Part shown: positions 7,969-63,987 of the stretch, in pieces
How the letters are laid out: the number at the start of each line of letters is the position of its first letter
How positions within the stretch are numbered: the stretch's first letter is position 1
From: an uncultured bacterium
GTDB lineage: Bacteria > Verrucomicrobiota > Verrucomicrobiia > Limisphaerales > UBA11358
Assembly: GCA_963723125.1 (NCBI GenBank)
Contig: CAVRPQ010000001.1
Span: 761,767 to 825,766, forward strand
Length of the DNA stretch: 64,000 nucleotides
Direction: 5' to 3'
Translations under genes and position numbers: made by a program
Notes under the pieces: generated by a model
Seen by the model: the letters and a program-made list of their open reading frames with translations, nothing else
Databases searched by the model: none
What the model was told of the DNA's origin: nothing

Positions 7969-9747
7969 ATGAACCGCACCGAATTAAAGACTGAAATTGA
8001 CCAACGCTGGCCCGCCCAGGTGCAGTGCCGGTCTGAATCCGCTTCACTGTGCGAACTGGCCTGCGCCCGCGCCGCGTTGCCGGAGCTGTGCGGACGCCTT
8101 TTCCTCGAATGGAATTTCAGCTTCGCGGGATTGATCGTCGAGGAAGGCGCGAGCGAATGGCAGTTGCGTTACGCCTTTTACGGCGACGTGGCTGCGGCGC
8201 CCCCGCCGCAGAATGTGCGCGCAACGTCTTCGTCGAGCGAAACGCAAATGGCGAAATCGGGCGACGTGGCGTCGCCTTCACTGACTGTGACGAAGGCGTC
8301 GCAGCCAATCGGTTGGGTTCATGTGCTGGTCACTGCGCCGCTCGCTGAAAAGACTTTTCCGAGTATTGTCAAATTCGTTCACGCCGCCGACTGGCACGAG
8401 CGCGAAGCGGAAGATTTGTTCGGCATCCACTTTGATGGCCATCCGCGTCTCGGCGACTTCATTCTGCACGACGACGCCTGGCAGGAAAACGTCGAGCCGA
8501 TGCGCCGGCATTTCGATCCGAAGGCGGCGATGCGCCATCGCAAGCCGGATGAAGACTGGCGGCCGCATCGTATTGTTCAAGAGCCGGGCGCGTTCGTGAT
8601 GCCGGTCGGACCAAAATATTCCGGCGTCACCGAGTCGGTTCATTTTCTGCTCGAAACGGTTGGCGAAGATGTCATCCGCTCCACGCCGCGCCTGTTCTAC
8701 AAATGGCGTGCGATTGAAAAACTCGCCGAGGGCAAAACGGCGGATGAAGTTTTGTTGCTGGCCGAACGGTTTGCGGCGACCACGGCCTTTGCTCACGGAC
8801 TCGCTTATTGTCAGGCCGTTGAAAGCATTTGCGGTGCGAATGTTCCGCCGCGCTCCAAGACCCTGCGTGTGTTTCTGGCTGAACTGGAACGGCTGCGCCA
8901 GCACGCCGGCGCGATTCAAGAAATTTGCGAGTCCACCGCACTGGCTGTGGCCAACGCACACGCAGGAATTTGCGAGGAGGAATTGCTGCGCATTTCCGGC
9001 GAACTCACCGGCCATCGCTATCTGTTTGGGCTGCTTGCGCTTGGCGGATTGCTTTGCGATTTGCCGAACGATGCCTGTGCCAAGGCGCTCGAAAAATCGC
9101 AGAAGGTTTTGACGCAACTGAACGTGCTGGAAAAGCATTTGCGCGTTTCCAGCAGTTTTTTGGACCGGCTGGAAGAAGTTGGCATCGTGCCGGAACGGAC
9201 GGCGATGGTTTATGGCTTGCTAGGACCCATTGCCCGCGCGTCGGGCATCATCCGCGACCTACGCCGCGCGCAACCGTATTTGGGTTACGAAAATCTTCAG
9301 TTCGACGTGCCGGGCGAGCAGGAAGGCGACGGCTATGCGCGGTTGCGGATTCTATTCGCCGAAGCAAGACAATCGGGTCGCATCATGGAACAAGCCGTTG
9401 CCGCATTGAACAAGGTAGGGCGGGCCAGTCCTCTGCCCGCCGCCCGTCAGCCTACGCAGGACGGCGCGCACGGAGTGGCGCGCCCTACCAACTCCAAGGA
9501 CAGCGATATTTGTGCGCCGTTTCAATTTCGCGCGGGCGCGGCGTTGGGCTGGGTCGAAGCCCCGCGCGGCGGCGCATTTCATTGGGTGCGGCTGGATGGA
9601 AATGGAAAAGTCGCGCGCTATCGCATCATCGCGCCTTCCTTTGCCAACTGGCACGGGTTCCATTTGTCCGTGGAGAAGTTCGCGTTCCAGGATTTTCCCA
9701 TCATGCTCTCCACGTTTGATCTGTCCGTGTCCGAGAACGACCGATGA
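7969..9747 (+). CDS. fused NuoC/NuoD-like 'large subunit' (HycE/HyfG homolog) lacking NiFe ligands (EhrL-like)
   Basis: 592 aa, alignable by eye to HycE. AERFAATTAFAHG replaces AERVCGICGFAHS. C-terminal FDLSVSENDR replaces DPCYSCTDR. Carries two in-frame repeat insertions. Confidence 0.85.
   Translation: MNRTELKTEIDQRWPAQVQCRSESASLCELACARAALPELCGRLFLEWNFSFAGLIVEEGASEWQLRYAFYGDVAAAPPPQNVRATSSSSETQMAKSGDVASPSLTVTKASQPIGWVHVLVTAPLAEKTFPSIVKFVHAADWHEREAEDLFGIHFDGHPRLGDFILHDDAWQENVEPMRRHFDPKAAMRHRKPDEDWRPHRIVQEPGAFVMPVGPKYSGVTESVHFLLETVGEDVIRSTPRLFYKWRAIEKLAEGKTADEVLLLAERFAATTAFAHGLAYCQAVESICGANVPPRSKTLRVFLAELERLRQHAGAIQEICESTALAVANAHAGICEEELLRISGELTGHRYLFGLLALGGLLCDLPNDACAKALEKSQKVLTQLNVLEKHLRVSSSFLDRLEEVGIVPERTAMVYGLLGPIARASGIIRDLRRAQPYLGYENLQFDVPGEQEGDGYARLRILFAEARQSGRIMEQAVAALNKVGRASPLPAARQPTQDGAHGVARPTNSKDSDICAPFQFRAGAALGWVEAPRGGAFHWVRLDGNGKVARYRIIAPSFANWHGFHLSVEKFAFQDFPIMLSTFDLSVSENDR
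8190..8306. repeat. palindromic element family B, copy B1 (in frame in the large-subunit gene)
   Basis: Termini GGCTGCGGCGCC ... GGCGTCGCAGCC. 117 nt encoding VAAAPPPQNVRATSSSSETQMAKSGDVASPSLTVTKASQP. Confidence 0.7.
9414..9489. repeat. palindromic element family A, copy A1 (in frame in the large-subunit gene)
   Basis: GGTAGGGCG...CGCCCTACC termini. Encodes VGRASPLPAARQPTQDGAHGVARPTN in a region where my recalled E. coli HycE sequence shows no comparable segment. Confidence 0.85.
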
Positions 9748-10528: not shown

Positions 10529-12757
10529 ATGGATACGCCAACGCTCATTTCAATCTTTTTTGCGCTTTGCGGCGTGGGCATTTTGCTGTCGCTGGCCGCA
10601 CCCCGGTCGCGTCAAGGCAACGTGCTTGCGTGGCTGGGTTGTCTCGCATCCATTGCTTTGATTTTGGCTGGCGCAAGCGCATTGCTGGCCGGAAAGACTT
10701 TCAACCAGCCGCTATGGACGTTGCCGGGATTGGCGGCCACGCTCACGGTAAAATTGGACTTCCTCTCGGCGGTGTTCATTTTCGTCACCGGCCTGGTGCT
10801 TTTTCCAGCTTCAATTTTCGGGCGTGGCTGCGACGCCTCGTCGCAGGCGCGTGGACGCGACGCCCGCGTCGCGCGAGAAACAGAGGGCGACGAGGCGTCG
10901 CCTTTACCTTCTGCGACGAGGGCGTCGCAGCCACGCGCGTTCACGGTATTCATGTTCGGCCTCTATGCGTCCATCGCCCTGATTTTTCTGGCGGGTGATG
11001 TCGTGCCGTTCCTTCTGGCATGGGAAGTGATGTCCATACTTTGTTGGCTGCTCATCGTGTGCGCACGGGAAAAGGGAAATGACCATGCTGGTTCGGGTTA
11101 TCTGCTGCTGGCGATGGGAGAAGCGGGAACGCTCGCGGCGGCGCTTGGTTTTCTTCTGCTCGCGGTTGGAACCGGATCATTGGATTTCGGCGGAATCAGG
11201 TCGGCGGCGTCAGGCTTGGACGCTGGAGTGCGATGGGCGGTCTTCCTGCTTTCATTCTTCGGCTTCGGCGTGAAGGCCGGATTGGTCCCGGTGAATTTCT
11301 GGTTGCCGCGCGCCTATGTCGCCGCGCCGCGCGCTTTTGTGCCAGTGCTGGCGGGCGCGACGCTGAACCTCGGCCTTTATGGAATTTTGCGAGTGAACGC
11401 CGACCTCATGCCGGCGACCCACACCGCGCCGGGCTTGGTCGCGCTCATTGTCGGCACACTCTCCGCTCTGATCGGGATTCTTTATGCGACGACGGACAAT
11501 GACCTCAAAATCATGCTGGCGCACAGTTCAATTGAGAACGTGGGCATCATCGTCGCCGGCTTCGGCGCGGGAATGGTTTTTGTGGCGACCAATCATCCGG
11601 CGCTGGCGGCAATCGCCTTCGTCGCGGCGCTGTATCATTTAATCAATCACTCGCTATACAAAACTCTGCTGTTCTTCGGCGTGGGGACGGTGGAAGCACA
11701 AACCGGCACGCGCGACATGGACCGGCTCGGCGGCTTGAGCAAATGGATGCCGCTCACCTCCCTTGGATTTCTCGTCGGCGCGCTTTCCATCGCCGGGCTG
11801 CCGCCGTTCAACGGTTTTGTGAGTGAATGGCTAACGCTGCAAACCATGCTGCGCTCGGCGGAACTTTCGGCGATTGGCGCAAAATTGGTTTTCGCCCTGT
11901 GTGGCGCGGGGCTGGCATTGACGGCGGCTTTGGCAGTCACTTGTTTCGTGAAAGTTTATGCGATGAGCTTTTTGGGAATGCGACGCCTGGAGGAAGAACA
12001 GAAAGTCAACGAAGCCAAATCCGGCTCGCTCACGCCAATGGCCATCCTTGCCGCGTTGTGCCTCGCGTTTGGCGTGCTGCCAACATACATAATTCCCGCG
12101 CTGGCCCTAGCGACCAATTCCTTGGATGGCGTGAGTGCCGCCGATGCGCTTGTGCCACCATTCTTTGCTTCCAGTCCGGCGCACGGCACGTTACCGCCCG
12201 CCTTCGTTGAAGATTTTCATAATATCGGCGCCCAAGTGGGACAAAGTATTCTACCCGGACGCGGCTTGGTCGTGCTCCATCGAGGCGGCACGGAAAATCC
12301 GGTGGTCTTCGCCATGTCCACTTCCTACATGATCGTGGTTTTGCTTGTTTTGCTGCTGCTGACATACGTTATTGTCTGCCTTTGGCTGACGCGCAGCCGG
12401 AAATTGACGCGGCGGCTGCGTTGGGACGGCGGCGTGCGAAATTTGCTGCCGGAGATGACTTACACGGCGACGGGCATTTCCAATCCAGTGCGGGTGATTT
12501 TCGACGCGGTGTTCCGGCCAACAACGGTGGAGGACACGCGCGAAACCGTGGCGGAACATTTTCGCACGGCCATCATCCGTGAGAAAGAGCGCGTGCATTT
12601 GGTGGACAAGCTGGTTTTTCATCCGGTCAGGACGGTGGTGATGTGGTTTGCCGGCCGTCTGGCGCGGATGCACCACGGACGATTCAACGCCTACGCGGCG
12701 TATGCGCTGTTGACGTTGCTGGTCGTGCTGGTCGTGTTTTTATTCCAAACATCGTAA
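10529..12757 (+). CDS. NuoL/HyfB-like antiporter subunit, paralog 1 (EhrA-like)
   Basis: 742 aa. Motifs WEVMSILCWLLI, FGFGVKAGLVPVNFWLPRAY, AHSSIENVG. HyfB-type C-terminal domain RWDGGVR..LPEMTYTATG. Confidence 0.9.
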   Translation: MDTPTLISIFFALCGVGILLSLAAPRSRQGNVLAWLGCLASIALILAGASALLAGKTFNQPLWTLPGLAATLTVKLDFLSAVFIFVTGLVLFPASIFGRGCDASSQARGRDARVARETEGDEASPLPSATRASQPRAFTVFMFGLYASIALIFLAGDVVPFLLAWEVMSILCWLLIVCAREKGNDHAGSGYLLLAMGEAGTLAAALGFLLLAVGTGSLDFGGIRSAASGLDAGVRWAVFLLSFFGFGVKAGLVPVNFWLPRAYVAAPRAFVPVLAGATLNLGLYGILRVNADLMPATHTAPGLVALIVGTLSALIGILYATTDNDLKIMLAHSSIENVGIIVAGFGAGMVFVATNHPALAAIAFVAALYHLINHSLYKTLLFFGVGTVEAQTGTRDMDRLGGLSKWMPLTSLGFLVGALSIAGLPPFNGFVSEWLTLQTMLRSAELSAIGAKLVFALCGAGLALTAALAVTCFVKVYAMSFLGMRRLEEEQKVNEAKSGSLTPMAILAALCLAFGVLPTYIIPALALATNSLDGVSAADALVPPFFASSPAHGTLPPAFVEDFHNIGAQVGQSILPGRGLVVLHRGGTENPVVFAMSTSYMIVVLLVLLLLTYVIVCLWLTRSRKLTRRLRWDGGVRNLLPEMTYTATGISNPVRVIFDAVFRPTTVEDTRETVAEHFRTAIIREKERVHLVDKLVFHPVRTVVMWFAGRLARMHHGRFNAYAAYALLTLLVVLVVFLFQTS
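10826..10932. repeat. palindromic element family B, copy B2 (in frame in paralog 1)
   Basis: GGCTGCGACGCC ... GGCGTCGCAGCC. Encodes [36 protein letters not shown]. Absent at this position in paralogs 2 and 3. Confidence 0.85.
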
Positions 12758-12768
12758 AACTTTTTCAA

Positions 12769-13011
12769 CCACGGATGGACGCGGATGAACACGGATAAAA
12801 AAAGCTGTGCGTGGTCAGAAATCGCGCCAGCGTCCTGGAGTGCGGTGGCAGAGCGCAGCGACGACACCGCTTTCCCACGCCGGACGGCACCCGCAGCGAT
12901 TGATACTCGTGCCGCCGAAAGCGGCGTCGCGCTCCGCTTGCCGCCGCAGTCCAAAACCTCGCGGCGGTTCGAGCGGAGTTTGAATCCGTGTCCATCCGTG
13001 TTCATCCGTGG
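12769..13011. repeat. MITE-like structured element of about 243 bp between paralogs 1 and 2
   Basis: Imperfect terminal inverted repeats built from ATCCGTG units (ccacggatggacgcggatgaacacggat / atccgtgtccatccgtgttcatccgtgg). Internal imperfect palindrome (gagtgcggtggcagagcgcagcg... / ...cgcgctccgcttgccgccgcagtc). Confidence 0.8.
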
Positions 13012-13025
13012 TTCAGATTGAATTT

Positions 13026-15227
13026 ATGAGCGCGGATGGATTGCTGCTCACGCTGATTTTCGCGCTGTGCTTTGCCGGCGCGCTGGCGGGAATTTTTGTC
13101 CCCGACCGGCGCAATCCGGCGCTGCTGGCCTGGACCGGATCGCTGGCGGCGCTCCTGACGTTGTGGGTCAGCGGCAATGTCCTGTGGTCGGGGCAAGTGT
13201 TCCAAGCCGAACTCTGGACGATTCGTGGTTTGGGAACGCTGACCGTTTCAATTGACCGTCTCTCGGCGCTCTTCCTGGCAGTGGCGGCGCTGGTGGTTCT
13301 GACCAGTTCGATTTTCTCGGCGGGTTATTTGAAACGCTATTCCGGCCACTACAACCTGAAGGCGCACAACGCCTGGTATCTGCTGCTGTTCGCTTCCATC
13401 GTGCTCATCCTGATTGCGAACGACGCGCTGTTGTTCCTGCTGGCGTGGGAGGCGATGTCCATTTTGAGCTATCTGCTCGTCAATTTCGAGCACCGTCGCG
13501 CCGAAACCAGCCGCGCGAGTTATCTCATGCTGGTAATGGGCGAAGCGGGCTTCATCGCGGTCGCGCTGGTGTTCCTGTTTCTCGCGGTGAAAACCGGCTC
13601 GCTGGATTTTTCTGCGTTCAGAACGGCGGGCGCTAACCTCGGCGGCTTTGCCCGCTGGACAATTTTTCTGCTGACGTTCTTTGGTTTCGGCGTCAAAGCC
13701 GGGTTGGTGCCGGTCAACACCTGGTTGCCGCGCGCCCACCCTGCCGCGCCTGCGAACGTCTCGGCAATTTTGTCCGGCACGATTTTGAACCTGGGACTTT
13801 ACGGTATTGTCCGCGTAAATCTCGACCTCGTGTCCGTCACGCAAAACGGAATGATTGGCGCGGGCGTGGTGGTGCTCATCATTGGGACAATTTCCGCACT
13901 GGTCGGAATCCTCTATGCGACCACCGAGAACGACCTCAAGGCCATGCTCGCACACAGCTCGATTGAAAACATCGGCATCGTCACCGCCGGCCTCGGCGCG
14001 GGCATGATTTTCACCTGCTACAACAAACCAGCACTGGCGGGCATCGCTTTCATCGCCGCGTTTTATCACATGATCAACCACTCGGTGTATAAATCGCTGC
14101 TGTTTTTTGGCGCGGGAACCGTGGACGACCGCGCCGGCACGCGCGATTTGAACAAACTCGGCGGCCTGATTCGCGCAATGCCGTGGACGGCGGGTGCGTT
14201 TTTGGTGGGCACGCTGGCGATTTCAGCGTTGCCGCCGTTCAACGGGTTCGTCAGCGAATGGCTCACGCTGCAAACGATGCTGCGCTCGGCGGAACTGCCC
14301 TCGACGCTCGTGAAATTGGTTTTCGCGTTATGTGGCGCGGGGCTGGCGCTCACGGCGGCACTGGCCGTGACGTGTTTCGTCAAGGCGTTTGCGATGGGCT
14401 TTCTCGGCATGTCGCGTTCAGAAGAAGCCGCCAAAGCCGTGGAAGCGAAAACTCCATCAATCGCGCCGATGATTCTTTTGGCATCGCTCTGTGTGCTGCT
14501 CGGCGTGCTGCCGACATACATAATTCCGGCGTTGGACACGGCGGTTCGTGGCTGCGACGCCTCGTCGCAGAGCGTGGGTGCGACGGGGGCGTCGCAGCCA
14601 CCAAATGCCGCCGACGCGCTGGTGCCGCCTTTCTTCGCCTCGAACCCGGCGCACAACACGTTGCCAACCGCGCTCGTGGAAGACTTTCATAATATCGGCG
14701 CGCAAGTTGGACAGAATGTATTGCCCGGACGCGGCTTGGTGGTGCTCCATCGCGGCGGCACGGAAAATCCGGTCGTTTTTGCCATGTCCACCTCCTACAT
14801 GGTCATCGTCTTAGGCGCATTGCTATTGGGGGTTTACGTTGTCATCCGCTTGTGGCTGACGCGAAATCGAAAGTTGGCTCGGCGGACACGCTGGGATGGC
14901 GGGGTGCGGCGTCTGTTGCCGGAAATGACTTACACGGGCACCGGCTTTTCCAATCCGGTGCGCGTGATTTTTGACGCGGTGTTTCGCCCAACCACGGTGG
15001 AGGACACGCGCGAAACCGTGGCGGAACATTTCCGCACCGCCATCCGGCGCGAGCGGGTGGCGGTGCATATCGTGGATCGCTGGTTCATCCAGCCGACCAA
15101 AAATGCCGTGATGGGATTGGCCCGTGGTCTGGCGGTGATGCACCACGGGCGCATCAACGCCTACGCCGGCTACGTGTTGCTGGCGCTGCTGGCGGTCGTG
15201 CTGTTTTTGCTGATACTGACATCGTGA
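13026..15227 (+). CDS. NuoL/HyfB-like antiporter subunit, paralog 2
   Basis: Start taken at ATG 13026 (MSADGLLL), just past the repeat element. Collinear with paralogs 1 and 3. Confidence 0.9.
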   Translation: MSADGLLLTLIFALCFAGALAGIFVPDRRNPALLAWTGSLAALLTLWVSGNVLWSGQVFQAELWTIRGLGTLTVSIDRLSALFLAVAALVVLTSSIFSAGYLKRYSGHYNLKAHNAWYLLLFASIVLILIANDALLFLLAWEAMSILSYLLVNFEHRRAETSRASYLMLVMGEAGFIAVALVFLFLAVKTGSLDFSAFRTAGANLGGFARWTIFLLTFFGFGVKAGLVPVNTWLPRAHPAAPANVSAILSGTILNLGLYGIVRVNLDLVSVTQNGMIGAGVVVLIIGTISALVGILYATTENDLKAMLAHSSIENIGIVTAGLGAGMIFTCYNKPALAGIAFIAAFYHMINHSVYKSLLFFGAGTVDDRAGTRDLNKLGGLIRAMPWTAGAFLVGTLAISALPPFNGFVSEWLTLQTMLRSAELPSTLVKLVFALCGAGLALTAALAVTCFVKAFAMGFLGMSRSEEAAKAVEAKTPSIAPMILLASLCVLLGVLPTYIIPALDTAVRGCDASSQSVGATGASQPPNAADALVPPFFASNPAHNTLPTALVEDFHNIGAQVGQNVLPGRGLVVLHRGGTENPVVFAMSTSYMVIVLGALLLGVYVVIRLWLTRNRKLARRTRWDGGVRRLLPEMTYTGTGFSNPVRVIFDAVFRPTTVEDTRETVAEHFRTAIRRERVAVHIVDRWFIQPTKNAVMGLARGLAVMHHGRINAYAGYVLLALLAVVLFLLILTS
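14550..14599. repeat. palindromic element family B, short copy B3 (in frame in paralog 2)
   Basis: ggctgcgacgcctcgtcgcagagcgtgggtgcgacgggggcgtcgcagcc, encoding GCDASSQSVGATGASQP. Paralogs 1 and 3 lack it at the same site. Confidence 0.85.
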
Positions 15228-17471: not shown

Positions 17472-18827
17472 ATGAGTAAAATTGAAAACATAAACGCACA
17501 GGAAATTCTGGATTCGCGCGGCAACCCGACCGTCATGGTCACGCTCACGCTCGAGAATGGCATTACCACGTCGGCCTGCGTGCCGTCCGGCGCGTCCACC
17601 GGCATTCGCGAAGCCGTGGAACTCCGCGACGGCGACGCCAAACGCTACGGCGGCAAAGGCGTGCTCAATGCAGTCGCCAACGTCAACAAAATCATCGCGC
17701 CAAAACTCAAGGGCAAATCGCCGCAGGCCCATAAGGAAATTGACGAATTGATGATCAAATTGGATGGCACGGAAAACAAATCCAAACTCGGCGCGAACGC
17801 CATTCTGGGCGTTTCGATGGCCGTTTGCCGCGCGGCGGCGCTGGATTCCGACACCCCGCTTTACGCTTACATCTCCAAGTTGCATGGTAGGGCGCGTCAC
17901 TCCGTGCGCGCCGAACGAGGTGGTCACGAAAGCGGCGCGCAGGGGACTGACGCGCCCTACCTTTTGCCCGCGCCGCAAATGAACGTGCTCAATGGCGGCG
18001 CGCACGCGACCAACAACGTGGATTTTCAGGAATTCATGCTGTTCCCCATCGGCGCGCCGAGTTTTGCCGAGGCCTTGCGCTATGCGGCGGAAACGTTTCA
18101 TACGCTCAAAAAAATTCTGCAAAAGCGCGGACTGGTTTCCGCCGTCGGCGACGAGGGCGGTTTCGCGCCGAGCCTCAAAACGAACGACGAAGCGGTGGAG
18201 TTGATTCTTGAAGCCATTAACGCTGCCGGTTACAAACCGGGGAAGGACATCGCACTCGCCATTGATCCGGCCGCCAGCGAGTTTTACGACAGCGGCGCTT
18301 ACGTCTTCAAAAAATCCGACAACTCGCGCAAATCGCCAGCCGAAATGGTCGAACTGTATCGCGGCTGGCTGGACAAATATCCCATTCTCTCGCTCGAAGA
18401 CGGCATGGGTGAGGAAGATAACGACGGTTGGAAAGCGTTGACCGCCGCTCTTGGCAAAAAACGGCAACTCGTCGGCGACGACAATTTCGTCACCAACCCG
18501 AAAATTTTTGCCGAAGGCATTCGTGACGGCATTGCCAACGCGATTCTCATCAAATTGAACCAAATCGGCACGGTCAGCGAGACGCTCGAAACGGTGGCGA
18601 TGGCGCAAAAGGCCGGTTACGGCACGGTGATTTCACATCGTTTGGGCGAAACCGAGGATGCCTTTATCGCGGATTTCGCCGTTGGCACCGGCGCGGGCCA
18701 GATCAAGACCGGCTCGCTTTGCCGGTCGGAACGAATTGCAAAATACAATCGCCTGCTCGCCATTGAACGCGAGTTGGGCAAAAAATCGCGCTACGGTGGC
18801 GCGGCGTTTAATGCCCGTTGGAAGTGA
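17472..18827 (+). CDS. eno: enolase (phosphopyruvate hydratase) carrying an in-frame repeat insertion
   Basis: [21 protein letters not shown]..., [44 protein letters not shown]. Confidence 0.95.
17886..17961. repeat. palindromic element family A, copy A2 (reverse orientation, in frame in eno)
   Basis: ggtagggcgcgtcactccgtgcgcgcc...gcgccctacc, encoding [25 protein letters not shown] between YISKLH and [13 protein letters not shown]. Confidence 0.9.
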
Positions 18828-18999
18828 TAGTATGATTTGGGAGCGCCGCGACTTGGATCCACTAGGCAAACTCCATTACCCGCGGGAGGGGCCGGGAGAA
18901 ATCCGGTCACCACATTCAAGGCGTGTGCGCTCCCTTTAACCGCTCTGTAGAGTGCCGGGATGGTTGTTATTCGTCCCAAAGGATGGTAAAGTTTTAGCA

Positions 19000-19085
19000 G
19001 GCAATGAAGTTTGCCCGTCCGCCTTTGCGGCGAACCGCCTTATGGCTAATGACTTCTACCGAAACTGAACCAGTATCGGTAACGA
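19000..19085 (+). promoter_or_regulatory. structured 5' leader, copy 2
   Basis: GGCAA/TTGCC, CCGC/GCGG, core GGCTAATGACTTCTAC, TACCGA/TCGGTA helix ending just before ATG 19089. TTGTTA-17-TAAAGT promoter upstream. Confidence 0.6.
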
Positions 19086-19088
19086 GTC

Positions 19089-20786
19089 ATGCAAACAACC
19101 AGTTCAGACGAGCGCCTCGAACTGAAGGCGTGTTCAGCGGGCCAGCAGGGGGAAGCGGCGATTCGCGTGATCGCTCCTTCCAATAGGGGCTTCCAAAGTA
19201 TTCTTTTTGAATCTCCCGGCTCTGGAAACCTCGGAGATAACGTTGAGCCGCCGGCCTTTTTTCGGGATTTGAACCTCAATCAGATCGTGGACGCCATCAC
19301 AGCGGGCTGCGAAGAATACAATCTCAAGCCATTCTTTTACACCCGCCCGAATGATCTTGCGGCGATTATTTACCGGCAGGAAGTCATGCGCGACCTTGAA
19401 ACCGCACCGCTGTTCGAGGGCATCAAATCGTTCTCAAACCAAACGCACACGATGCGCAATCATCTCGCCGCTGCGAAAAATTGGCACTACAAGTTCTCGA
19501 AGGGCCGGTGGTTTCTCGATGCTGCGGAAATCTATTGTGCGGCGGTTGTGGAATTGCGGCGCATTCTCGAACACGCCAGTCCCACTTCGCGCGGCCTGCA
19601 CGCCTTTCGGGAATATCTGGCGCAGTATGTTGAATCCGACCGTTTCAAAACACTATGCCGAGAAGCGGAAAATGTGAAATCCGGTTTGTCGGCCATCCGC
19701 TATAGTGTGCGCATCAAGGGCGGCAGCGTTACGGCGAGTCCTTATGATTCCGAGATTGATTACACCGCCGCCGTCGAGGAAACGTTCGCCAAATTCAAGC
19801 AAGGTGCGGTGAAGGATTATCGCTGCAAGTCCACGTCGCTACCGGGCATGAATCACGTCGAAGCCGGAATTCTTGACCGTGTAGCACATTTGAATCCCCA
19901 AGCGTTTCGCGCGCTGGACGACTTTTGCGCGAAGCACGAAAATTTCCTCGAAAAACCAATTGCCGATTTCGACCGCGAAATTCAGTTTTACGTCGCGTAT
20001 TTGGAGTATGCGGAAACCTTCAAACGCGCCGGACTGAAATTCTGTTATCCGCAAGTATCAGACACGCGCAAGGAAGTTTGCAACCGCGATGGATTCGACC
20101 TGGCGTTGGCCGGCAAACTTTTAGGTAGGGCGGGCAGTCCTCTGCCCGCCGTCCCGCAAGGCGAAACCAACGAACGGCGCGCACGGAGTGACGCGCCCTA
20201 CCGCATCGTTTGCAATGATTTCTCTTTGAGTGGGCCGGAACGGATTTTCGTCGTCACGGGACCGAATCAAGGCGGCAAGACGACGTTTGCGCGCACGTTC
20301 GGACAATTGCATTATTTGGCGAGCCTCGGCTGTCCCGTCCCCGGCTCGGAAGCGCGACTTTTTCTCTTCGACCGCCTGTTCACCCATTTTGAGCGCGAGG
20401 AGGACATCAGAACGTTACGCGGCAAGTTGCAAGATGATCTGGTTAGGATTCATCACGTTCTTGAACAAGCCACGCCGAACAGCATCGTCATCATCAACGA
20501 AATTTTTTCCTCCACGAGCGTCAAGGACGGCGTTCATCTGGGCAAGAAAGTGTTGGAACGTCTGTCTCAACTTGATGTGTTGGGCGTTTGCGTGACCTTT
20601 CTGGATGAACTCGCCTCCTTCAATGAAAAGACCGTGAGCGTGGTCGCTGCCGTCGCGCCGGAAAATCCCACGCAGCGCACTTACAAGGTTGAGCGAAGGC
20701 TGGCGGACGGACTGGCCTATGCGCTGGCGATTGCCGAGAAATACCGGCTCACCTACGACCAGCTGAAAGCGAGATTAAAGCCGTGA
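19089..20786 (+). CDS. MutS-family ATPase (domain V type, no recognisable mismatch-binding or Smr domain), paralog A
   Basis: [20 protein letters not shown] (Walker A), [13 protein letters not shown] (Walker B region), VTFLDEL. Confidence 0.8.
20124..20202. repeat. palindromic element family A, copy A3 (in frame in MutS-like A)
   Basis: ggtagggcgggcagtcctctgcccgcc...gacgcgccctacc, encoding [26 protein letters not shown]. Confidence 0.9.
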
Positions 20787-22519
20787 AAGCGCACCTGCTG
20801 TATCGCGACCGCGATTTCGATCTGCAACAGAAATTGCCGGCGAACGAACCGGCGCTGACGCAAGATTTGGAACTGAACACGCTGTTCCGCGCAATGGCCG
20901 GCGGTGACGAATTTCTGTTTCACGTGGCAAAGCGAACGGTCTTGTCGGGTTTGGAAAATGATCTTGCAACCATCCTCTATCGCCAAGCCATCCTCAAGGA
21001 TTGCCTGCGGAACGAAGCCGCCGTAAGGGAAATTTACGACATCGCCGTTGAAGCTATTGAAACCAAACGGACGCATTGGCTGGGTGTTTTCAGCCGCTAT
21101 CCAAGTGGCATCTTGTATGAAGCGGTGAAATTGCTACAAATGTTGATGGGCGTGCTGGCCAAGCTGAAGCGCGTGGCCGATGAGGCCGGTAGGGCGCGCA
21201 GTCCTCTGAGCGCCGTGAACGCTGAGGGACAAACTTCAATTTCCGAACGGCGCGCACGGAGTGACGCGCCCTACCAATTCGAGTCGGAAGGTTTCAAAAC
21301 CTTCTTCGAGATGCTTAAGGCGGAATTGGCGGATGATTATTTTGCCGCCGTCGAAGCGCAACTCAAGGAACTGGAATTCAAGGATGGCGTGTTGGTGAGC
21401 GCGGAATTGGGCGAAGGCAATCAGGGTGTCAATTATGTCCTGCGCAAATCGCTGCGCCCCAGGCCGGGTTGGTTCCAGCGGATTTTTTTACGAAATTCCT
21501 CCGCCTACACCTTCCACATTGACCCACGCGATGACGGCGGTTTCCGTGCTTTGTCGGAATTGCAGGACCGGGGAATCAATTTGGCGGCAAATGCCGTCGC
21601 CCAAGCCGCCGACCACATTACAAGTTTCTTCGTCATGTTGCGGACGGAACTGGCGTTTTACATCGGCTGTCTGAATTTGCAGCATCAGCTTGCGTGGAAA
21701 GGGATGCCGGTTTGCTTTCCGGTTCCCGTGCCGTCCGGCACTCGCAAGCAAACCTGTGTCGGGTTGCGCGACGCCTGTCTTGCGCTGGTTTGTGGCCGCG
21801 ACGCCTCGGCGCGCGAAAAAAAGACCGTGCCATCTGGTTTGCCCATCGGCACAGGTGACGCGGCGTCACCTTTACCTTCTGCGACTAGGGCGTCGCAGCC
21901 ACCTGTCGTCGGCAATGACTTGGCTGCCGATGGAAAGAACCTCATCATCATCACCGGCGCTAATCAAGGCGGCAAATCCACCTTCTTGCGTGGCGTGGGC
22001 CTGGCGCAATTGATGATGCAATGCGGCATGTTCGTCGCTGCCGATTCTTTCAGCGCCGACCTATGCCGCAGCCTGTTCACGCATTACAAGCGCGAGGAGG
22101 ACGCTACGATGACAAGCGGGAAGTTCGATGAGGAACTCGCCCGCATGAGCGGCATTGCCGATGCGCTGACGTCCACCCTCCGCAGTGCTACGGAGGACGG
22201 GTCGGATTCGCTGCTGCTGTTCAACGAGTCCTTCGCCGCGACCAACGAACGGGAAGGTTCGGAGATTGCCCGGCAGATTGTCCGCGCGCTGCTGGAAACG
22301 CGTGTGAAAATCTTTTTTGTGACGCATCTCTACGAATTCGCCCGAACCTTTTGGGAAGATAAAATGGACAGTGCCGTTTTTCTGCGCGCCGAAAGGCAAG
22401 CCGATGGGCAAAGAACTTTCAAGTTGCTGCCGGGCGAGCCGTTGGAAACCAGTTTTGGCGCGGACTTGTATCAAGAGGTTTTTGAAAGTGGCAATGAGCG
22501 CAAAGTTTTGACTCCATGA
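20783..22519 (+). CDS. MutS-family ATPase (domain V type), paralog B
   Basis: GTGA overlap (GTG start) with the upstream stop. [48 protein letters not shown]. Confidence 0.8.
21188..21275. repeat. palindromic element family A, copy A4 (in frame in MutS-like B)
   Basis: ggtagggcgcgcagtcctctgagcgcc...gacgcgccctacc, encoding [29 protein letters not shown]. Confidence 0.9.
21794..21900. repeat. palindromic element family B, copy B4 (in frame in MutS-like B)
   Basis: ggccgcgacgcc ... ggcgtcgcagcc, encoding [36 protein letters not shown]. The right half is near-identical to B2. Confidence 0.85.
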
Positions 22520-30821: not shown

Positions 30822-32462
30822 ATGAATCAGGTGGATGGCATTCTCAACCGCGTCTCCGGTTTGGCCGGGGAATTGAAGCTGGCCAATCTCCAGCCGCAAA
30901 TCGCCGCGTGCCGGAAACAATTCAACGGCAGCAGCCACGGCATTGACGTGGCGGTATTTGGCCGGTTCAAAGCAGGTAAAAGTTCGTTCCTCAACCATTT
31001 GACCGGACGCGCCGTGCTGCCCATCGGCGTCGTGCCGCTTACGGCGGTCATCACGCGGCTGCGCTTTGGGCCTGCCGAGAAGGTCACGGTGCGTTTCCTG
31101 AACGGCAGCGCCAAAACCATTCCGCTTGGAGAAATCGGTCTCTACGTTGGCGAGAAGGAAAATCCGAACAATCAAAAGCAGGTTGGGTCAGTCGAAGTCG
31201 AACTGCCCGCACTCAAGCTGCTGGAGCCGCTGGAATTCGTGGACACGCCGGGCCTCGGCAGCGCATTCACGCACAACACCGAAACCACCTTCCAATGGCT
31301 GCCCTATGTTGGCGCCGCGCTCGTGGCGGTCAGTTGCGACGCGCCATTGTCGGAGCGCGACTTGGCGCTGCTGGACGAATTGCGCCGTCACACGCCGAAA
31401 ATCGTTTTGCTGTTGACGAAAGCAGATTTGCTGAACGAACCGCAGCGCGCCGAAGTGTTGTCGTTTGTCCGCCAGCAACTCCGCCAGAAATTGGAAACGG
31501 ACTTGCCGGTTTTTTTCTATTCCGTGAAGCCGGAATGCACGACTCTGAAGACCGAACTCGAACAAAATCTTTTATCACCGCTTATCCGCAATCGCGGCGA
31601 AGCCGCTGACCAGATTGGACGGCACAAACTGCTCTCGCTGGTGGGGCGGACGCTGGATTATCTGCGTGTCGCGCTGGCTGCGGCGACGCAGGCGGAATCT
31701 TCGCGCGCGGCGTTGCGCGAAAAACTGGCGGACGAACGCCGCCAGTTCGATTTGTTCCGCGAAGAACTTCAGGTGCTATCGCGCCAGTGGTCGGCCCAGG
31801 CGCTGAATCAGTCGCTGCTCAAATTGAAACCGCGACAAGAAGCCTTACAGGAACAAATCACAACCGGGTTGCAGGCGCAGCTTCCGCATTGGCCGTCGCG
31901 ATTGCCGCCGCTGTTGCGAACGTGGCGTGAATGGTTGCAAAACATCCTGAACCATGAACTCACCGATATTTCGAGCGCGGAAAAGACGACCTTCCTTGAA
32001 CCGCTAAAGCGCGTGGAACAACACCTGATGCGGACGCTTCAAGCCCTTCAGCATCGGCTCGCCGGACATGTGCAAGCTGCGCTCGGCGTCACGCTCGCGC
32101 CACACGATATTGTCCTCGAAGTGCCCGAACCTGCCGCGCCGCCGATTGACATCGGTTATGTGGACGCGGCATTCAGCCTCATCAGCCCGCTCATTCCGAT
32201 GAGTTTATTCAGTCCGGCGATTGAACGGTCGCTGCTGCGGAAATCGCGCTGGGAAACCGAGAAAAATCTTTCGCGCCTGGCATCCAACTGGCGCGACCGC
32301 GTAGCCAAAGGCATCAGCGAGTTGACCCGGCAGGCCGAGCAGCAGGCGCTGGACGAACTGGCTGCGCTCGAACACACGCTGAAGCAAACCGCCTCCAAAG
32401 CGCCCGAATTGAAACGAGCCATTGAGGAGTTGGAACAGTTCCAGGAGCGATTACGTGGATGA
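30822..32462 (+). CDS. dynamin-like GTPase, paralog 2
   Basis: G1 GRFKAGKSSFLN, G3 FVDTPGLGS, G4 LTKADL. The GTPase domain is collinear with paralog 1 (23644-25665). Confidence 0.8.
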   Translation: MNQVDGILNRVSGLAGELKLANLQPQIAACRKQFNGSSHGIDVAVFGRFKAGKSSFLNHLTGRAVLPIGVVPLTAVITRLRFGPAEKVTVRFLNGSAKTIPLGEIGLYVGEKENPNNQKQVGSVEVELPALKLLEPLEFVDTPGLGSAFTHNTETTFQWLPYVGAALVAVSCDAPLSERDLALLDELRRHTPKIVLLLTKADLLNEPQRAEVLSFVRQQLRQKLETDLPVFFYSVKPECTTLKTELEQNLLSPLIRNRGEAADQIGRHKLLSLVGRTLDYLRVALAAATQAESSRAALREKLADERRQFDLFREELQVLSRQWSAQALNQSLLKLKPRQEALQEQITTGLQAQLPHWPSRLPPLLRTWREWLQNILNHELTDISSAEKTTFLEPLKRVEQHLMRTLQALQHRLAGHVQAALGVTLAPHDIVLEVPEPAAPPIDIGYVDAAFSLISPLIPMSLFSPAIERSLLRKSRWETEKNLSRLASNWRDRVAKGISELTRQAEQQALDELAALEHTLKQTASKAPELKRAIEELEQFQERLRG

Positions 32463-32542
32463 TTTACGATTTACAATTTGCGATTTACGCGGTTCAGATG
32501 AAACCGGCGCGCTCGTAAATCGTAAATCTGAAATCGTAAATC
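32461..32542. repeat. long hairpin built from heptamer arrays (GATTTAC-type)
   Basis: Left arm gatttacgatttacaatttgcgatttacg, right arm cgtaaatcgtaaatctgaaatcgtaaatc, loop of about 24 nt. Begins at the stop codon of the GTPase gene. Confidence 0.8.
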
Positions 32543-38138: not shown

Positions 38139-38271
38139 TCAAACCAAAGCGACGAAGGTTGGTTACAGCTTGGTGGGGCGGGCTACTGAGAGCCGGCTCG
38201 CGGGGACGCTCACCGAAGGTTGCAAAAACGTGCCACCACTCCGGAAGGGAGGCTTCCGCCTCCGGTGAGGG

Positions 38272-40008: not shown

Positions 40009-40064
40009 GGTAGGGCGGGCAGTCCTCTGCCAGCCGCGGCGCGCACGGAGTGGCGCGCCCTACC
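40009..40064. repeat. palindromic element family A, short intergenic copy A5
   Basis: ggtagggcgggcagtcctctgccagccgcggcgcgcacggagtggcgcgccctacc, between the divergent rpsB and protease genes. Confidence 0.9.
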
Positions 40065-46501: not shown

Positions 46502-48118
46502 TGCGCAGGACTTCCTCACCGCTTGAATAGAAATTATACACGTCTGCACCATTAAGATTTGAAAAGCGGTCGCGCCAGGTCAATGTGTTACGCGCATCGT
46601 TTGTGGGAAACAGGCTGTGCCATTCGCTCGCCCAAAGCCGGGTGTCGTAACCATTCCAACTCGGATTCATCATATCAGCATCTGTCGCCGCACTGCCGTC
46701 GAGCGCTTCGATTGGCACAGCGGCATCAATCATAAAGTATTTGTTTATTCTCGCGTTGTCGTCATTAAGCGCGCTCAGGACCACCATGTTCCCCAGGCTA
46801 TGCGCTACCACTACTGTACTCCCGGACAAGGTGCCTAAAAAGCCCGCGAGCACAGGCGCAGTTGAAACCGCGTGCATCTCATTAGTATGATAGTTGGGCG
46901 TGGTATAACTGAGCACTTGCGAATCCGCTCCATTCCATGTCACACCATAAAACTTTGCCTTGGAACCAGACCAGTAAAAACGTTTGAACATTTCACTCTC
47001 CACTCCGCGCGCCTGCTGCTGGTTCACATTGTAGCCGTGAATAAAGACGAGATTCTTGCCGTCGGTCTGCGGTTCGTTCGGCGCAGAGGCGCGGCTGGGG
47101 TTGTTGGGATCCACAGTTCCGTTCACGTAGCAGAAGTTTGCGTGCCGGAACATCTGCTCCACGCCACTAATGCTCAGATACAACGGCGTTCCGCCCAACA
47201 ATTTACCGTTATGCCAAATTTCCAGCATCAACGGGTGCGGCGTGGCAGCACAACCTTCCACCAGAATGATTCCCGTGCCGCCGGTGGCCTGTACCTGCGC
47301 CAGCCAGTTTGTGTCCAACGCAGTATCAGGGTTCACCTGGATTGTGTCTGCCGCGTAAGCCGGCTCGTCAGAATTGACACCATAACCGGCAGTCGCCGTT
47401 ACGTTGGCAAGGTAATCAAAAGCGTTGGACGGTGTGAGACTCGTATATATAAACTTCACCGCGCCGCAAAGCGGCCCGCTATCTGCGTCATAAAGGTGAT
47501 ATTCATACCCATCTGTCAGCGGCAATAATTGCAAGGTGTTGCTCAAACACAAGGCTATAGGAAAGAAATTCACCACATCACTGCGTCCTTGCACCTGACT
47601 ATGCGCAAAGTTCGGGTATGCCGATTGTTGAACTGAATTGTAAGCAATTCCGGGAATCTGATCGTCCGCTTCACCCTCGCTGGTTTCATCATCATCATGT
47701 TCCTGCGAATCATTGATCCAAAAGCGGTAAGGGTTGGCAACAGTGGTCTGATCCTGCGCATCAAAAGTGATTTGCCCGTCGCGGTTGTTGTCCACCGCCA
47801 TTTGCAGGCCCAATTCCTTGGACTGCACGTCGAAGTGGTAACTCCCAAAGGCCACTGGCGTCGCATCCACCTCGGCACCTGCCGGCGCCTGTATCACTGT
47901 TTGTCCCCAAATCGAGCCGCCAGCATCCGTGACGGGCATCAACGTTTGGCCCCGGATTTGCAGTGAATTGGGAGGCAACGCTTCAGCGTATCCGCCCGTT
48001 GAGTTCAATCTCCAAGCCCGGGCTTGGACCACATAGGTTACGGTCTTGCCGGCAACAGCCGGATCTGATGTCTGGATCATCACTTTTGATTGGGTATCAG
48101 AGGTGCTCTCCCATTGGG

Positions 48119-49591
48119 GGGCGCATCTCAGTTTCTTGCAGAGTAGTGTAAGCTCAGGGCATGACAACTCCCTGCCTTGAAGCTGTGGGTTCCACGATAA
48201 CCTCTGGGACCTCATCCGAACCGCTGGCGGTGCTGGCCGCCCGTGCGGCGTGCGCCTTGGAACATTCGATCCAACGCCTCGTGCTGGCCAGCGATCAAAA
48301 CCTCGGCCATCTCGAAGTCCAAGCCGTTCGGGATGTCCAGGAACTGCTTGGCCAAACGATCGAACGTGGTGCTCAAGCCAAAGCCGACGCTACGCCACCG
48401 GTCTGCCCGGTCTGTGGACAAACCCTCACCCGCCTTTCCACTGACCAGCCACGCACCTTCGAGTCGCGCTTTGGTTCGATCACCGTCAAACGCACCCGCG
48501 GCTACTGCAAACGCTGTCGCAAATGGCGCGTGCCCGCCGACGCCGCCCTGGGGTTAGAAGAAAGTGCCGGCTACTCACCCGCCGTGCAAAACATGGCGGC
48601 GCTCTTGGCCAGCAAAATGCCCATCGAGGACGCCAGCGCCGTGCTGGAACATCTCACCGGCGTCAAATTGCCCCGCGCCACACTGGATCGCGAAGCCCGT
48701 CGGCAAGGCGAACGCGCCCAACGGTTGCGCACCCACCTTGATCAGCAAGCCGCCACCGCCCAGAACCAACTTGAACTGACCCTCGAACCCTACCAGATGA
48801 TCCTCCAACTGGACGCCTGGAACATCCGCGAACGCGATGCCTGGGGCCAGAGTGAGGCGTTGCGCCGCCAGGGCAAAGAACCTGAACGCTGGCATTGGGT
48901 TTACACCGGCACCTGTTTTCGACTCGATCACCGCGGCCAGACCGCGGGCGGACGGCCCGTCATCACCCAACGGGGCTTCGTCGCCACGCGTGCGGGCATT
49001 GACGCCTTGCGCGAACAACTGCACGCCGAAGCCTTGCGCCGCGGCCTGGGCCAAGCCGCCAGCGCGCTGGTCATTGGTGATGGGGCCGTATGGATCTGGC
49101 GTCTGGCCGACGACCGCTGGCCACAAGCCCGCCAGCGACTTGACTTCTATCATGCCCTACAACACTTGGCCGCTGTGGGCCGAGCGCTCTTTGGCGAAGA
49201 CAAAGAAAAGCTCAAGGCCTGGCTCAGACCCTTGGTCCAACAACTCAAGAACGAATCCTCGCTCAAAGTGATCCGTCAATTGGAAGAGGCCTTGGCCACA
49301 ATGCCCGGCGGGCCGGCCACCGCGGCGGTGGCCAAAGAATTGGAATACTTCCACGACCATCAACAGCGAATGGATTACCGGGCCGGGCGGCGAGCGGGCG
49401 AACCGATTGGCAGTGGTCCGGTGGAGGCGACCTGCCGGCAGACCCAATGCCGGTTCAAACGCCCGGGCCAGTTCTGGAGTCAGGCTGGTGATGAAGCCTT
49501 ATTGTGTTTGGAAACATTCTGGCGCAACGACCGCTGGCACCTGCTCTTCCCTCACACCACATTCAACCCTGCAAGAAACTGAGATGCGCCC
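48119..49591 (+). mobile_element. IS element copy 2
   Basis: Same IRs. 9-bp TSD CCCATTGGG at 48110-48118 and 49592-49600. Confidence 0.9.
48161..49582 (+). CDS. IS transposase (473 aa)
   Basis: Identical translation to the other two copies. Confidence 0.85.
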   Translation: MTTPCLEAVGSTITSGTSSEPLAVLAARAACALEHSIQRLVLASDQNLGHLEVQAVRDVQELLGQTIERGAQAKADATPPVCPVCGQTLTRLSTDQPRTFESRFGSITVKRTRGYCKRCRKWRVPADAALGLEESAGYSPAVQNMAALLASKMPIEDASAVLEHLTGVKLPRATLDREARRQGERAQRLRTHLDQQAATAQNQLELTLEPYQMILQLDAWNIRERDAWGQSEALRRQGKEPERWHWVYTGTCFRLDHRGQTAGGRPVITQRGFVATRAGIDALREQLHAEALRRGLGQAASALVIGDGAVWIWRLADDRWPQARQRLDFYHALQHLAAVGRALFGEDKEKLKAWLRPLVQQLKNESSLKVIRQLEEALATMPGGPATAAVAKELEYFHDHQQRMDYRAGRRAGEPIGSGPVEATCRQTQCRFKRPGQFWSQAGDEALLCLETFWRNDRWHLLFPHTTFNPARN

Positions 49592-53694: not shown

Positions 53695-54151
53695 CGTCTT
53701 GGACGGAGATTGGTGCCAATTCGTTACAAGGAATTACCTTTGGTTGCAACACATTTTCGCTCCTCGCTGATTTGAGGCAGCGCCTTCCGCGTTTTGTTCG
53801 ATACAGCGACGGATTCTCCGACAGCGTTTGGGGTGGTTAACAAACTTCCCGGCGCTCAAACCATCGTGCGGCGTTCATGACCGGAGTTTAACCAACTCGT
53901 GGGACTGTGGCGGTCCAACCCGCTTGGATATGCGACTGTCGGTTCGTATATCAGACAGTCGAAACGCTGATTTCCAACGGTTTGTGAACAGCAGATTGCC
54001 GGGAAAAGACAATTTTGATATACGAACCAGCAGTCGTATAATCACAGTTAGGCTGCAAATGTGTGCCACCCTTGAAATGTAACATTTTCGCCATTGATGT
54101 TTTGCCGGGTTTGTTCTATTCTAATTTCAACAAGCCTTTGTAATTGCCGGA

Positions 54152-56742: not shown

Positions 56743-56916
56743 ATGATCAGAGATACATATTGCTGCCCATCCGGTCGCCGGAGCCAACCGCTGCAGGCGC
56801 TTTCAGTTCCGCTATCGCAGTCCGGCAGTGGCTCGACAATCCATGTTATGCAGCAAGGCACATCATATCCAAACGACCAGTGAAAACGGCATTAAAATGC
56901 GCGTTTCTATTGGCGG

Positions 56917-58389: not shown

Positions 58390-58925
58390 TATTGGCGGCC
58401 GTGTGCGGTTTGCTGTTTTCTCTGGCTGGTTGCACTCCATACCGCTCATACCGTATTGGTGGACTTAACCAAGGCCTGGTTCGCGGTGGCGGCTATTCCG
58501 ACAAGCAGTTGGCTCCCGATGCGTTCAGAATTGACTTTGATGGCAATGCTTTCACCTCCTGGAGACGCACCCAGGATTTTGCGATGCTTCGCGCTGCTGA
58601 CGTTGTCACAGAGCATAACTTTAAATATTTCGCCATCACTTCCGGTGGAAACAGCTCTTACGATGGCAGCACTTCCATCAGCCCGACCTATACGCAGCCG
58701 AGCACAGGCTATCCGTTATTCAATCCCGTGTCGGCTCTTACTATTCGCTGCTTCAGTGAAAAGCCGGAGGGTGTTTACACATTTGATGCGGTTTACCTGC
58801 AACAGACGCTGAGGAAAAAATACAACCTCAAGCCGCCTGACCCGGCGCCGGCACTAAAGCCGTCAAAAGCCGGGGGTTGAGGCAACCGACGGCAGAGGAC
58901 GGATGGCCATTGAGCCACACGTCAT

Positions 58926-63803: not shown

Positions 63804-63820
63804 GGCAAGCATGGCGGCGC

Positions 63821-63987
63821 GTCGGTAGCCTCGCCCCACCCAAGTGCCGCTTTCGTTCGGTGGGGCGAGCGTACTCGCGAGCCGGGCCTGTAGCGGCGCT
63901 GTGTCAGCCCCGATTTTCACAAACGGCCGCCGATGTCGGTCACAGACCGACGCTACAGATTCGGCTCGTCGGTAGCCTCGCCCCACC
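63821..63987. repeat. cluster of palindromic repeat units at the window end
   Basis: GTCGGTAGCCTCGCCCCACC occurs twice (63821-63840, 63968-63987). CTCGCCCCACC pairs with GGTGGGGCGAG (63859-63869). Unit 63888-63958 (ctgtagcg...cgctacag) is homologous to 43309-43354. Confidence 0.8.

Follow-up and report, generated by a model that had tools for sequence, protein, structure and literature searches.

A REP/REPIN-type repeat family lying in frame in genes of Verrucomicrobiota, and a related RAYT embedded in clpB

Classical repetitive extragenic palindromes (REPs) and the hairpin-forming REP doublets (REPINs) are almost entirely extragenic, and REPINs, together with the REP-associated Y1/HUH tyrosine transposases (RAYTs), are treated as extragenic, vertically inherited passengers. 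Rickettsia palindromic elements (RPEs), for their part, are tolerated in surface regions of functional proteins, while MITEs, the miniature transposable elements with inverted repeats, come with target duplications and descend from insertion sequences of the DDE type. Here, we analyse family B, a palindromic repeat in a 64,000-nucleotide stretch of DNA (the window) from an uncultured bacterium of the Verrucomicrobiota (lineage UBA11358; GCA_963723125.1, contig CAVRPQ010000001.1, positions 761,767 to 825,766, forward strand). An earlier reading of the sequence alone, made without database searches and hereafter called the sequence-only reading, had proposed family B as a dispersed palindromic family secondarily inserted in frame. 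We consider it, with a probability of about 0.8, to be a REP/REPIN-type non-autonomous mobile element of Verrucomicrobiota, which is moved in trans by a RAYT and whose gene copies survive in frame in permissive loops. This class assignment is based on the anatomy of the element, the missing target duplication, its dispersal, and its cognate RAYT.

Family B shares several features with REPs and bacterial interspersed mosaic elements (BIMEs) and with REPINs and their RAYTs (Escherichia coli TnpArep, 4ER8; Pseudomonas fluorescens REPINs). A GT(A/G)G head stands beside a short, imperfect palindrome rich in GC, doublets in inverted orientation form a single long hairpin, target duplication is missing, and at related loci a Y1/HUH transposase gene is flanked by cognate repeats. 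In contrast to classical REPs and REPINs, family-B dimers lie mostly inside open reading frames (ORFs) and in frame, extragenic location being the only defining REP feature that they lack. Further, unlike classical RAYTs, the RAYT of the family-B clade is found inside clpB at three loci.

A precedent within the phylum is provided by the intragenic GTAG REPs of Opitutus terrae, one family of which has GTGG heads (Di Nocera et al, 2013; PMC3733652). Their singles and dimers lie in frame in numerous known proteins, some of them with roles in DNA repair, such that exceptions to the extragenic location of REPs were already recorded. RAYTs were proposed as their mobilisers, and neither a reading-phase bias nor a RAYT inside a host gene was reported in that study. 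Family B has the same host phylum, the same GTAG/GTGG heads, and the same habit of in-frame singles and dimers. Compared via the encoded peptides, however, it is a different family from the Opitutus terrae repeats (GTAG-17 to GTAG-20), because its peptides CDAS, ASQP, and VAATP are missing from the published table of REP-encoded residues (PMC3733652).

The same paper notes that RPEs also insert in frame in genes and classes them with CGTC-tagged repeats. RPEs share with family B only the habit of placing palindromic repeats in frame within functional genes, whereas family B has GTGG/GTAG heads, an unrelated sequence, and hosts in a different phylum, the Verrucomicrobiota. IS200/IS605 elements and their palindrome-associated derivatives resemble the family-B system in the Y1_Tnp superfamily, the hairpin ends, and the missing target duplication; unlike them, family B has no coding capacity, and its RAYT fits the REP-associated model better. 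DDE-type MITEs (Correia/NEMIS, ERIC, RUP) are likewise small, have terminal inverted repeats, and sometimes lie in transcribed regions, whereas family B shows no target duplication and no DDE parent was seen among the loci read. The in-frame REP habit is therefore already described, in Opitutus terrae and Rickettsia, and rarely studied; the family-B repeat itself is a different family, and the RAYT embedded in clpB is the unexpected part.

Anatomy and genic position of family B

The family-B unit is a 15-16 nt GC hairpin, GCGACG-(3-4 nt loop)-CGTCGC, with a GT(G/A)G head two bases upstream; one form of it, with the spacer CT, reads GTGG-CT-GCGACGCCTCGTCGC. It is free of stops in all six frames, and clean GTGG-headed units in the window are confined to four elements. 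The focal copy (10824-10934, + strand; 111 nt, 37 codons) contains four units arranged as two nested inverted pairs, a doublet within a doublet. Unit 1 (10824-10846, +) consists of the head GTGG, the spacer CT, and the hairpin GCGACG-CCT-CGTCGC (10830-10844) followed by AG, while unit 2 (10851-10874, +) has the same orientation, with head GTGG, spacer AC, and hairpin GCGACG-CCCG-CGTCGC (10857-10872). Unit 3 (10885-10907, -) is inverted, its hairpin GCGACG-AGG-CGTCGC (10887-10901) preceding CTTTAC, a degenerate GTAA head on the opposite strand. Unit 4 (10911-10934, -) is the inverted partner of unit 1 and is formed by the hairpin GCGACG-AGGG-CGTCGC (10913-10928), AG, and CCAC.

All four copies of GTGGCTGCGACGCC...GGCGTCGCAGCCAC named by the sequence-only reading were located at the expected places, with their limits widened to 8188-8307, 10824-10934, 14548-14601, and 21792-21902 by the full inverted repeat GTGGCTGCGACGCC / GGCGTCGCAGCCA(C). 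It had also held that every copy in the window is genic, and each indeed lies within a long, Pfam-supported ORF that it crosses without a single host-frame stop. The most diverged copy (8188-8307, +; 120 nt), with a GCGGCG-CCCC-CGCCGC variant as its first unit, splits the NuoC-like N-terminal domain of a NuoC+NuoD-like large subunit at aa 74-113 (ORF 7969-9747; Complex1_30kDa and 49kDa). The focal copy occupies aa 99-135 of the HyfB-like antiporter subunit paralogue 1 (ORF 10529-12757; Proton_antipo_M), in the loop after the third predicted helix. The short form (14548-14601, +; 54 nt, 18 codons), a REPIN-like doublet of two inverted units, is found at aa 514-531 of paralogue 2 (ORF 13008-15227; Proton_antipo_M). 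The last copy (21792-21902, +; 111 nt) lies at aa 337-373 of a MutS_V-domain protein, MutS-like B (ORF 20783-22519; MutS_V), just upstream of the ATPase domain; its left inner unit has decayed, whereas its right half almost matches the corresponding part of the focal copy.

The paired ends are far more frequent in the window than expected by chance. The 12-mer GGCTGCGACGCC, with at most one mismatch, has 10 matches compared to 0.99 expected, a count that none of 100 shuffles reaches, and eight of these ten represent the inverted, paired termini of the four elements. With a longer end pattern of 20-21 nt, there are 6 matches against 0.00 expected. Moreover, an assembly artefact is ruled out, because three independent public assemblies of the locus (L001-L003) carry identical elements.

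The long and short forms, whose relation the sequence-only reading had left to be checked, are set apart by an inner pair of hairpin units. In the window, long forms consist of three or four units (111-120 nt; 111-138 nt overall), the second pair being nested inside the first, and public copies group by size into two-, three-, and four-unit classes. The head is GTAG in the orthologous copy of locus L122 and in relatives at L246 and L248. In the flanks of the four window copies, neither shared direct repeats nor target-site duplications are present. RNA folding, likewise suggested earlier as a check, is very stable: -84.2 kcal/mol for the focal copy, -44.1 for the 54-nt form, and -55.9 and -63.9 for the other two (z from -9.6 to -4.3). 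As single-stranded DNA, the corresponding values are -50.5, -27.5, -29.6, and -37.4 kcal/mol (z from -8.4 to -3.0 against shuffles), with the focal copy at the extreme in both cases (z of -8.4 as DNA and -9.6 as RNA) and the 54-nt form folding into a single hairpin both as DNA and as RNA (z of -6.35). No Rfam family matches the elements.

Comparison with paralogues and orthologues supports a secondary origin of the inserts. The three HyfB paralogues of the window had been put forward as an internal control, correctly so, as their gaps fall exactly at the elements. In the closest orthologues of paralogue 1 (HyfB1; 86% identical, 712 aa), an 8-residue loop, AGGSQVQS, replaces the 37-codon element, and nearly all of 120 HyfB1 orthologues (73-86% identical) have a short, very variable loop at this site, the closest reading SIFAGGSQVQSRAF. 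Empty-site comparisons include window 10824-10934 against L121:1149-3287 and window 8188-8307 against L122:7356-8966. In L122, the NuoCD orthologue is without the 8188 copy (8190 in the sequence-only reading) and reads YGE-GDA-GW, and the L121 orthologue of HyfB paralogue 2 lacks the short copy; empty orthologous sites are thus known for three of the four window copies. The orthologues of the window are labelled Verrucomicrobiia or Limisphaerales. Since the closest orthologues do without them, the family-B inserts appear to be secondary insertions into genes, in agreement with the earlier proposal. The loops themselves are hypervariable, so that the empty sites do not fix the insertion boundaries.

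The same loops are occupied repeatedly. An element with a GTAG head lies at the HyfB1 site in orthologue P0003 (metagenome-assembled genome (MAG) GCA_021780375.1, locus L122), and the metagenome contig L186 has a family-B element there as well as the NuoCD copy at 8190. The loop of paralogue 2 that holds the short copy contains long family-B elements in orthologues P0035 and P0056. Further, a second NuoCD loop carries a GTAG-headed element of another family, A, in the window, whereas in L122 and L186 this loop is taken by a family-B doublet. Analogously, the pre-ATPase linker of MutS-like B contains family B, and the equivalent linker of MutS-like A contains a family-A GTAG element.

The AlphaFold model of HyfB1 is only moderate (mean pLDDT 65.5), with low confidence at the insert (46-61 compared to 83-95 in the flanking helices), and is uninformative on orientation; a hydropathy script run on the HyfB loops returned overlapping segments and an ambiguous positive-inside count. 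Other recurrent insert peptides occur in HyfB1 orthologues after consensus position 159 (P0025, P0034, P0038, P0046, P0003), after 464-466 (P0020, P0115, P0099), and after 107 (P0008, P0085). These peptides, for example WKMEDGRENRAAQSSTL and ISQMNAD..., suggest further in-frame repeat families.

Distribution and reading phase

Family B is dispersed through Verrucomicrobiota. A scan of one genome per species, in which loci were kept only if their ends were paired, gave many single chance matches in GC-rich phyla and at least 26 loci with properly paired ends. Among the matches listed, all of the latter are MAGs of Verrucomicrobiota, from Limisphaerales, subdivision 3, Chthoniobacterales, and 'Spartobacteria'. 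A stricter pattern matched at least 120 metagenome stretches and none of 2.9 million viral contigs. Public Verrucomicrobial genomes and metagenomes thus hold at least about 140 family-B elements, and the inserted segments are not conserved in distant homologues; both results are the opposite of what the sequence-only reading had named as speaking against a mobile family. The 64 kb of the window contain four copies, and several MAGs gave multiple loci, for example L023, L045, and L077 in MFD05502.bin.2.32.

In-frame copies are found in a range of other hosts. They occur in aconitase, at the same site in L115 and L035, in PutA between the two catalytic domains, in MnmA, in a CP_ATPgrasp/Alpha-E protein, and in an ABC-F ATPase between the cassettes. 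At the protein level, a 43-aa insert-peptide query found no candidate sharing three words in a set of 5.8 billion proteins. A profile of the four window peptides had five matches among 1.84 billion representatives, namely one unrelated tandem-repeat ORF and small ORFs overlying long elements. A census of proteins is impossible in this way, because short low-complexity queries lack power.

At the DNA level, a census covered 109 elements located at least 200 nt from the end of their locus, taken from among the listed public loci, and an element was counted as genic if a frame was open for at least 60 codons on both sides. By this measure, 70 of the 109 (64%) are genic compared to 75% of random points in the same loci, so that family B is barely depleted from genes. 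The forms differ in this respect: 40 of the 45 two-unit doublets, most often 54 nt long, lie in genes, compared to 17 of the 41 four-unit forms, whose non-genic members are mostly 135-138 nt long.

Genic copies are strongly biased in reading phase. After orthologous sites had been merged, 53 unique genic sites were entered 36 times in the GxDAS phase, 15 times in the VAATP phase, and twice in the WLRR phase (chi-square 33, 2 d.f., p ~6e-8). Pfam-checked hosts together with the four window copies split 7:3:0. The favoured phase reads GxDAS...ASQP, and the Arg/Trp-rich phase is almost absent. Peptides predicted from gene copies are rich in Gly, Ser, Asp, Ala, Pro, and Gln (G-C/G-D-A-S-S-P/Q ... 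A-T-R/G-A-S-Q-P), with predicted junctions such as SIFGRGCDASSQAR and ATRASQPRAFTVF. Within the window, the earlier claim of one phase common to all four copies holds for three of them, which enter as xGT GGC TGC GAC (R/C-G-C/R-D-A-S). The 8190 copy is entered one phase earlier (GTG GCT GCG, giving VAAAPPPQ) and joins the ...ASQP reading only at its 3' end. Selection rather than target choice presumably causes the bias.

A cognate RAYT and its copy inside clpB

Relatives of one RAYT clade are consistently flanked by family-B repeats. A RAYT hidden Markov model (HMM), built from the alignment in the supplement of PMC3733652, was run against all fetched loci. In the metagenome contigs L138 and L169, it revealed a Y1/HUH transposase with family-B doublets on either side. 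Five further loci of the same clade (L244; L245, GCA_964402695.1; L246; L247, GCA_964587655.1; L248) are all flanked by doublets of the form GT(A/G)G-NN-GCG(A/G)CG-loop-CG(T/C)CGC, giving cognate flanks in 7/7 examined loci. On this association we base the view that the RAYT mobilises family B. At another locus, L020, a degraded transposase fragment lies beside a single unit.

The transposase is of the REP-associated type. The L138/L169-type protein scores 37.4 bits against Pfam Y1_Tnp (cut-off 23), and its best solved relative is E. coli TnpArep (4ER8), compared to which the clade has an extra insertion of ~50 residues. The best NCBIfam model is that of the REP-associated tyrosine transposase, at 66.7 bits, which is below the equivalog cut-off of 80, compared to 27.2 bits for the IS200 model. 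Of its 1169 relatives, most are standalone proteins 190-340 aa in length that come from the PVC group (Planctomycetes, Verrucomicrobia, Chlamydiae), and many bear the JGI label 'REP element-mobilizing transposase RayT'.

RAYTs at L115, L199, and L237 were rejected as the family-B transposase. The L115 gene belongs to another clade and has a repeat other than family B, GGAGCGCCGGCCTCC, on its flanks, in keeping with cognate pairing. No family-B doublet adjoins the L199 and L237 genes, and the L237 gene is flanked by another repeat. The L115 RAYT (L115:3362-4281), whose flanking REP family (GGAGCGCCGGCCTCCGGGCACGGCGCG) also places an in-frame doublet inside the transposase coding sequence, lies directly downstream of the aconitase gene that holds a family-B doublet.

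In three independent assemblies, a doublet, a RAYT, and a repeat cluster are embedded in clpB, where they separate the M-domain region from the second ATPase domain (L138:496-1245; L169:4975-5829, minus strand; L244:4138-6501). In L138 and L169, the embedded unit belongs to one continuous clpB frame, and the L169 ORF encodes a complete ClpB of 1156 aa with Y1_Tnp at residues 695-773. Compared to standalone relatives, the embedded RAYT is full length, and it retains both the HUH motif (NHVHV) and the tyrosine. No ATG, GTG, or TTG occurs between the upstream doublet and its conserved N-terminus, and no stop precedes the point where ClpB resumes. Between L138 and L169, the RAYT has a dN/dS of 0.039, and values of 0.075-0.084 apply to the flanking ClpB sequence; the embedded RAYT is under purifying selection. 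For the REP doublet in clpB, dS is 0.18 compared to 0.6-1.7 in the flanks. L169 and L244 have an additional in-frame doublet within the RAYT itself, and the interruption of the L244 RAYT, located past the HUH motif, may stem from a sequencing error. A full-text literature search returned no paper tying RAYTs to ClpB in this manner.

These features allow a more far-reaching idea, which we put forward tentatively and hold to be somewhat less likely true than false. Family B and its RAYT might form a REPIN-RAYT lineage specialised for life inside protein-coding genes, with an 18-codon doublet that is stop-free in every frame and linker-like in the favoured phase. The RAYT would then be made as an internal ClpB domain without its own start or stop, flanked by in-frame REP dimers.

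Proposed mobilisation and alternative explanations

Most likely, a RAYT moves the elements in trans as single-stranded hairpins and without target duplication. Copies landing in genes would survive only if the reading frame is kept, no stop is introduced, and the site is a permissive surface loop or linker; surviving copies would then presumably be translated as short peptides. The four window copies may be such survivors, in variable loops of NuoCD-like, HyfB-like, and MutS-like proteins. The pattern of persistence inside genes is plain from the copies themselves, and tolerance at permissive sites is its probable cause.

Several observations weigh against mobilisation by a RAYT and in-frame survival. 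Family-B copies are mostly genic, although REPs are extragenic by definition, and in the census genic status relies on open frames and the G+C content of third codon positions (GC3) as gene proxies, with ~12 hosts checked against Pfam. The RAYT HMM finds no RAYT in the 64-kb window; with the remainder of the source genome outside the search, the link to the transposase comes from related genomes, and both RAYT mobilisation and translation of the inserts are conclusions drawn indirectly. Moreover, the net gain in length is smaller than the element in all three comparisons of filled and empty sites (90 compared to 111 nt, 114 to 120, and 42 to 54), and 'empty' alleles hold short motifs resembling the ends or core of the element (GGCTCC...CAGTCC; GGTGACGCC). 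Owing to these short gains and REP-like motifs, the comparisons do not fix the exact unit that was inserted or the target that it entered, and the change could have been an insertion or a partial deletion. The shortfall could reflect target preference, turnover of the loop after insertion, or the footprints of partial deletion.

The strongest competing explanation, to which we nevertheless give only a small chance, is use by the host. The elements would then act as regulatory mRNA or DNA hairpins in operons, through attenuation, mRNA stabilisation, or protein binding, or as selected linker peptides, rather than being merely tolerated selfish DNA. The high stability of the RNA hairpins (-44 to -84 kcal/mol), the repeated occupation of the same loops across genomes and paralogues, the biased reading phase, and the low dS of the clpB REP dimer (0.18 against 0.6-1.7) would all fit such a role, but the last two are equally expected under recent transposition plus purifying selection. 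Close orthologues manage without inserts, the host genes are functionally unrelated, and one loop can hold different REP families in different lineages. In addition, copies degenerate, as seen at 21792 and in L122, where the left half of the element has lost its pairing.

Still less probable is that a RAYT no longer moves the repeats or never did, such that recombination or gene conversion and slipped-strand events disperse and homogenise them and the RAYT is merely co-resident. The loop occupied by family A in the window and by family B in L122 and L186 could reflect such a replacement, and a net length gain unequal to the element length as well as a window without RAYT would agree with it. 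However, the copies lie in unrelated genes without flanking homology, all seven loci of one RAYT clade have cognate units while RAYTs of another clade (L115, L199, L237) have other repeats in their flanks, and the RAYT is under strong purifying selection.

A classical MITE, derived by deletion from an insertion sequence with a DDE transposase and bearing terminal inverted repeats, is rejected as very improbable despite the small size and the 14-nt terminal inverted repeats, since target-site duplications are found at 0/4 copies, each terminus is itself a GT(A/G)G-headed hairpin with inner units repeating the module, the associated gene encodes a Y1 transposase, the window's only insertion sequence (ISKra4 family) lies outside every family-B unit and copy when compared by position rather than by ends, and no parent insertion sequence with family-B ends turned up among the loci read, in which no search aimed at one was made.

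The window has further features in addition to family B. A second REP-like family with a GTAG head (GGTAGGGCG(C/G)GC...GCGCGCCCTACC) occurs at 9414-9489, 17886-17961, 20124-20202, 21188-21275, and 40009-40064, with variants near 38172 and at 63815-63987 (12 motif matches compared to 1.25 expected); the ORFs that contain the first four copies are those of the NuoCD-like protein, enolase, MutS-like A, and MutS-like B. A fluoride riboswitch (18991-19065, +; Rfam RF01734, 50.2 bits, E 1.5e-11) has the two MutS_V-domain genes just downstream of it, and enolase together with the Hyf/Ehr-like complex just upstream. Two copies of a ~1.5-kb insertion sequence with an ISKra4-family transposase (NCBIfam NF033572, 226 bits), at 48105-49603 and 56903-58401, are ~98.7% identical and 8.8 kb apart. 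An inverted repeat at 32461-32542 consists of tandem GATTTAC(G/A)-type heptamers, its 29-nt arms being 86% complementary and 24 nt apart. Another, at 53929-54040, has 25-nt arms (TATGCGACTGTCGGTTCGTATATCA) that are 88% complementary and 62 nt apart, and is without the GC-rich REP hairpin motif.

About ten in-frame REP inserts of two families lie in one 64-kb window, and family B shows that REPs are found routinely inside core genes of Verrucomicrobiota, including those for respiratory-complex subunits, aconitase, PutA, MnmA, ClpB, and MutS-like proteins. This has consequences for gene calling, protein-family alignments, and structure prediction in a phylum that is abundant in soil and peat. 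Further, the in-frame inserts provide a natural map of permissive loops, and the strong bias in their reading phase is probably a measurable sign that selection acts on repeat-encoded sequence. If the tentative idea of a lineage specialised for life inside genes is true, the supply of transposase would depend on how strongly clpB, the gene of a heat-shock chaperone, is expressed, and loss of the element would be difficult. The RAYT embedded in clpB, if expressed as a fusion, would represent a new way of housing and regulating a domesticated transposase.

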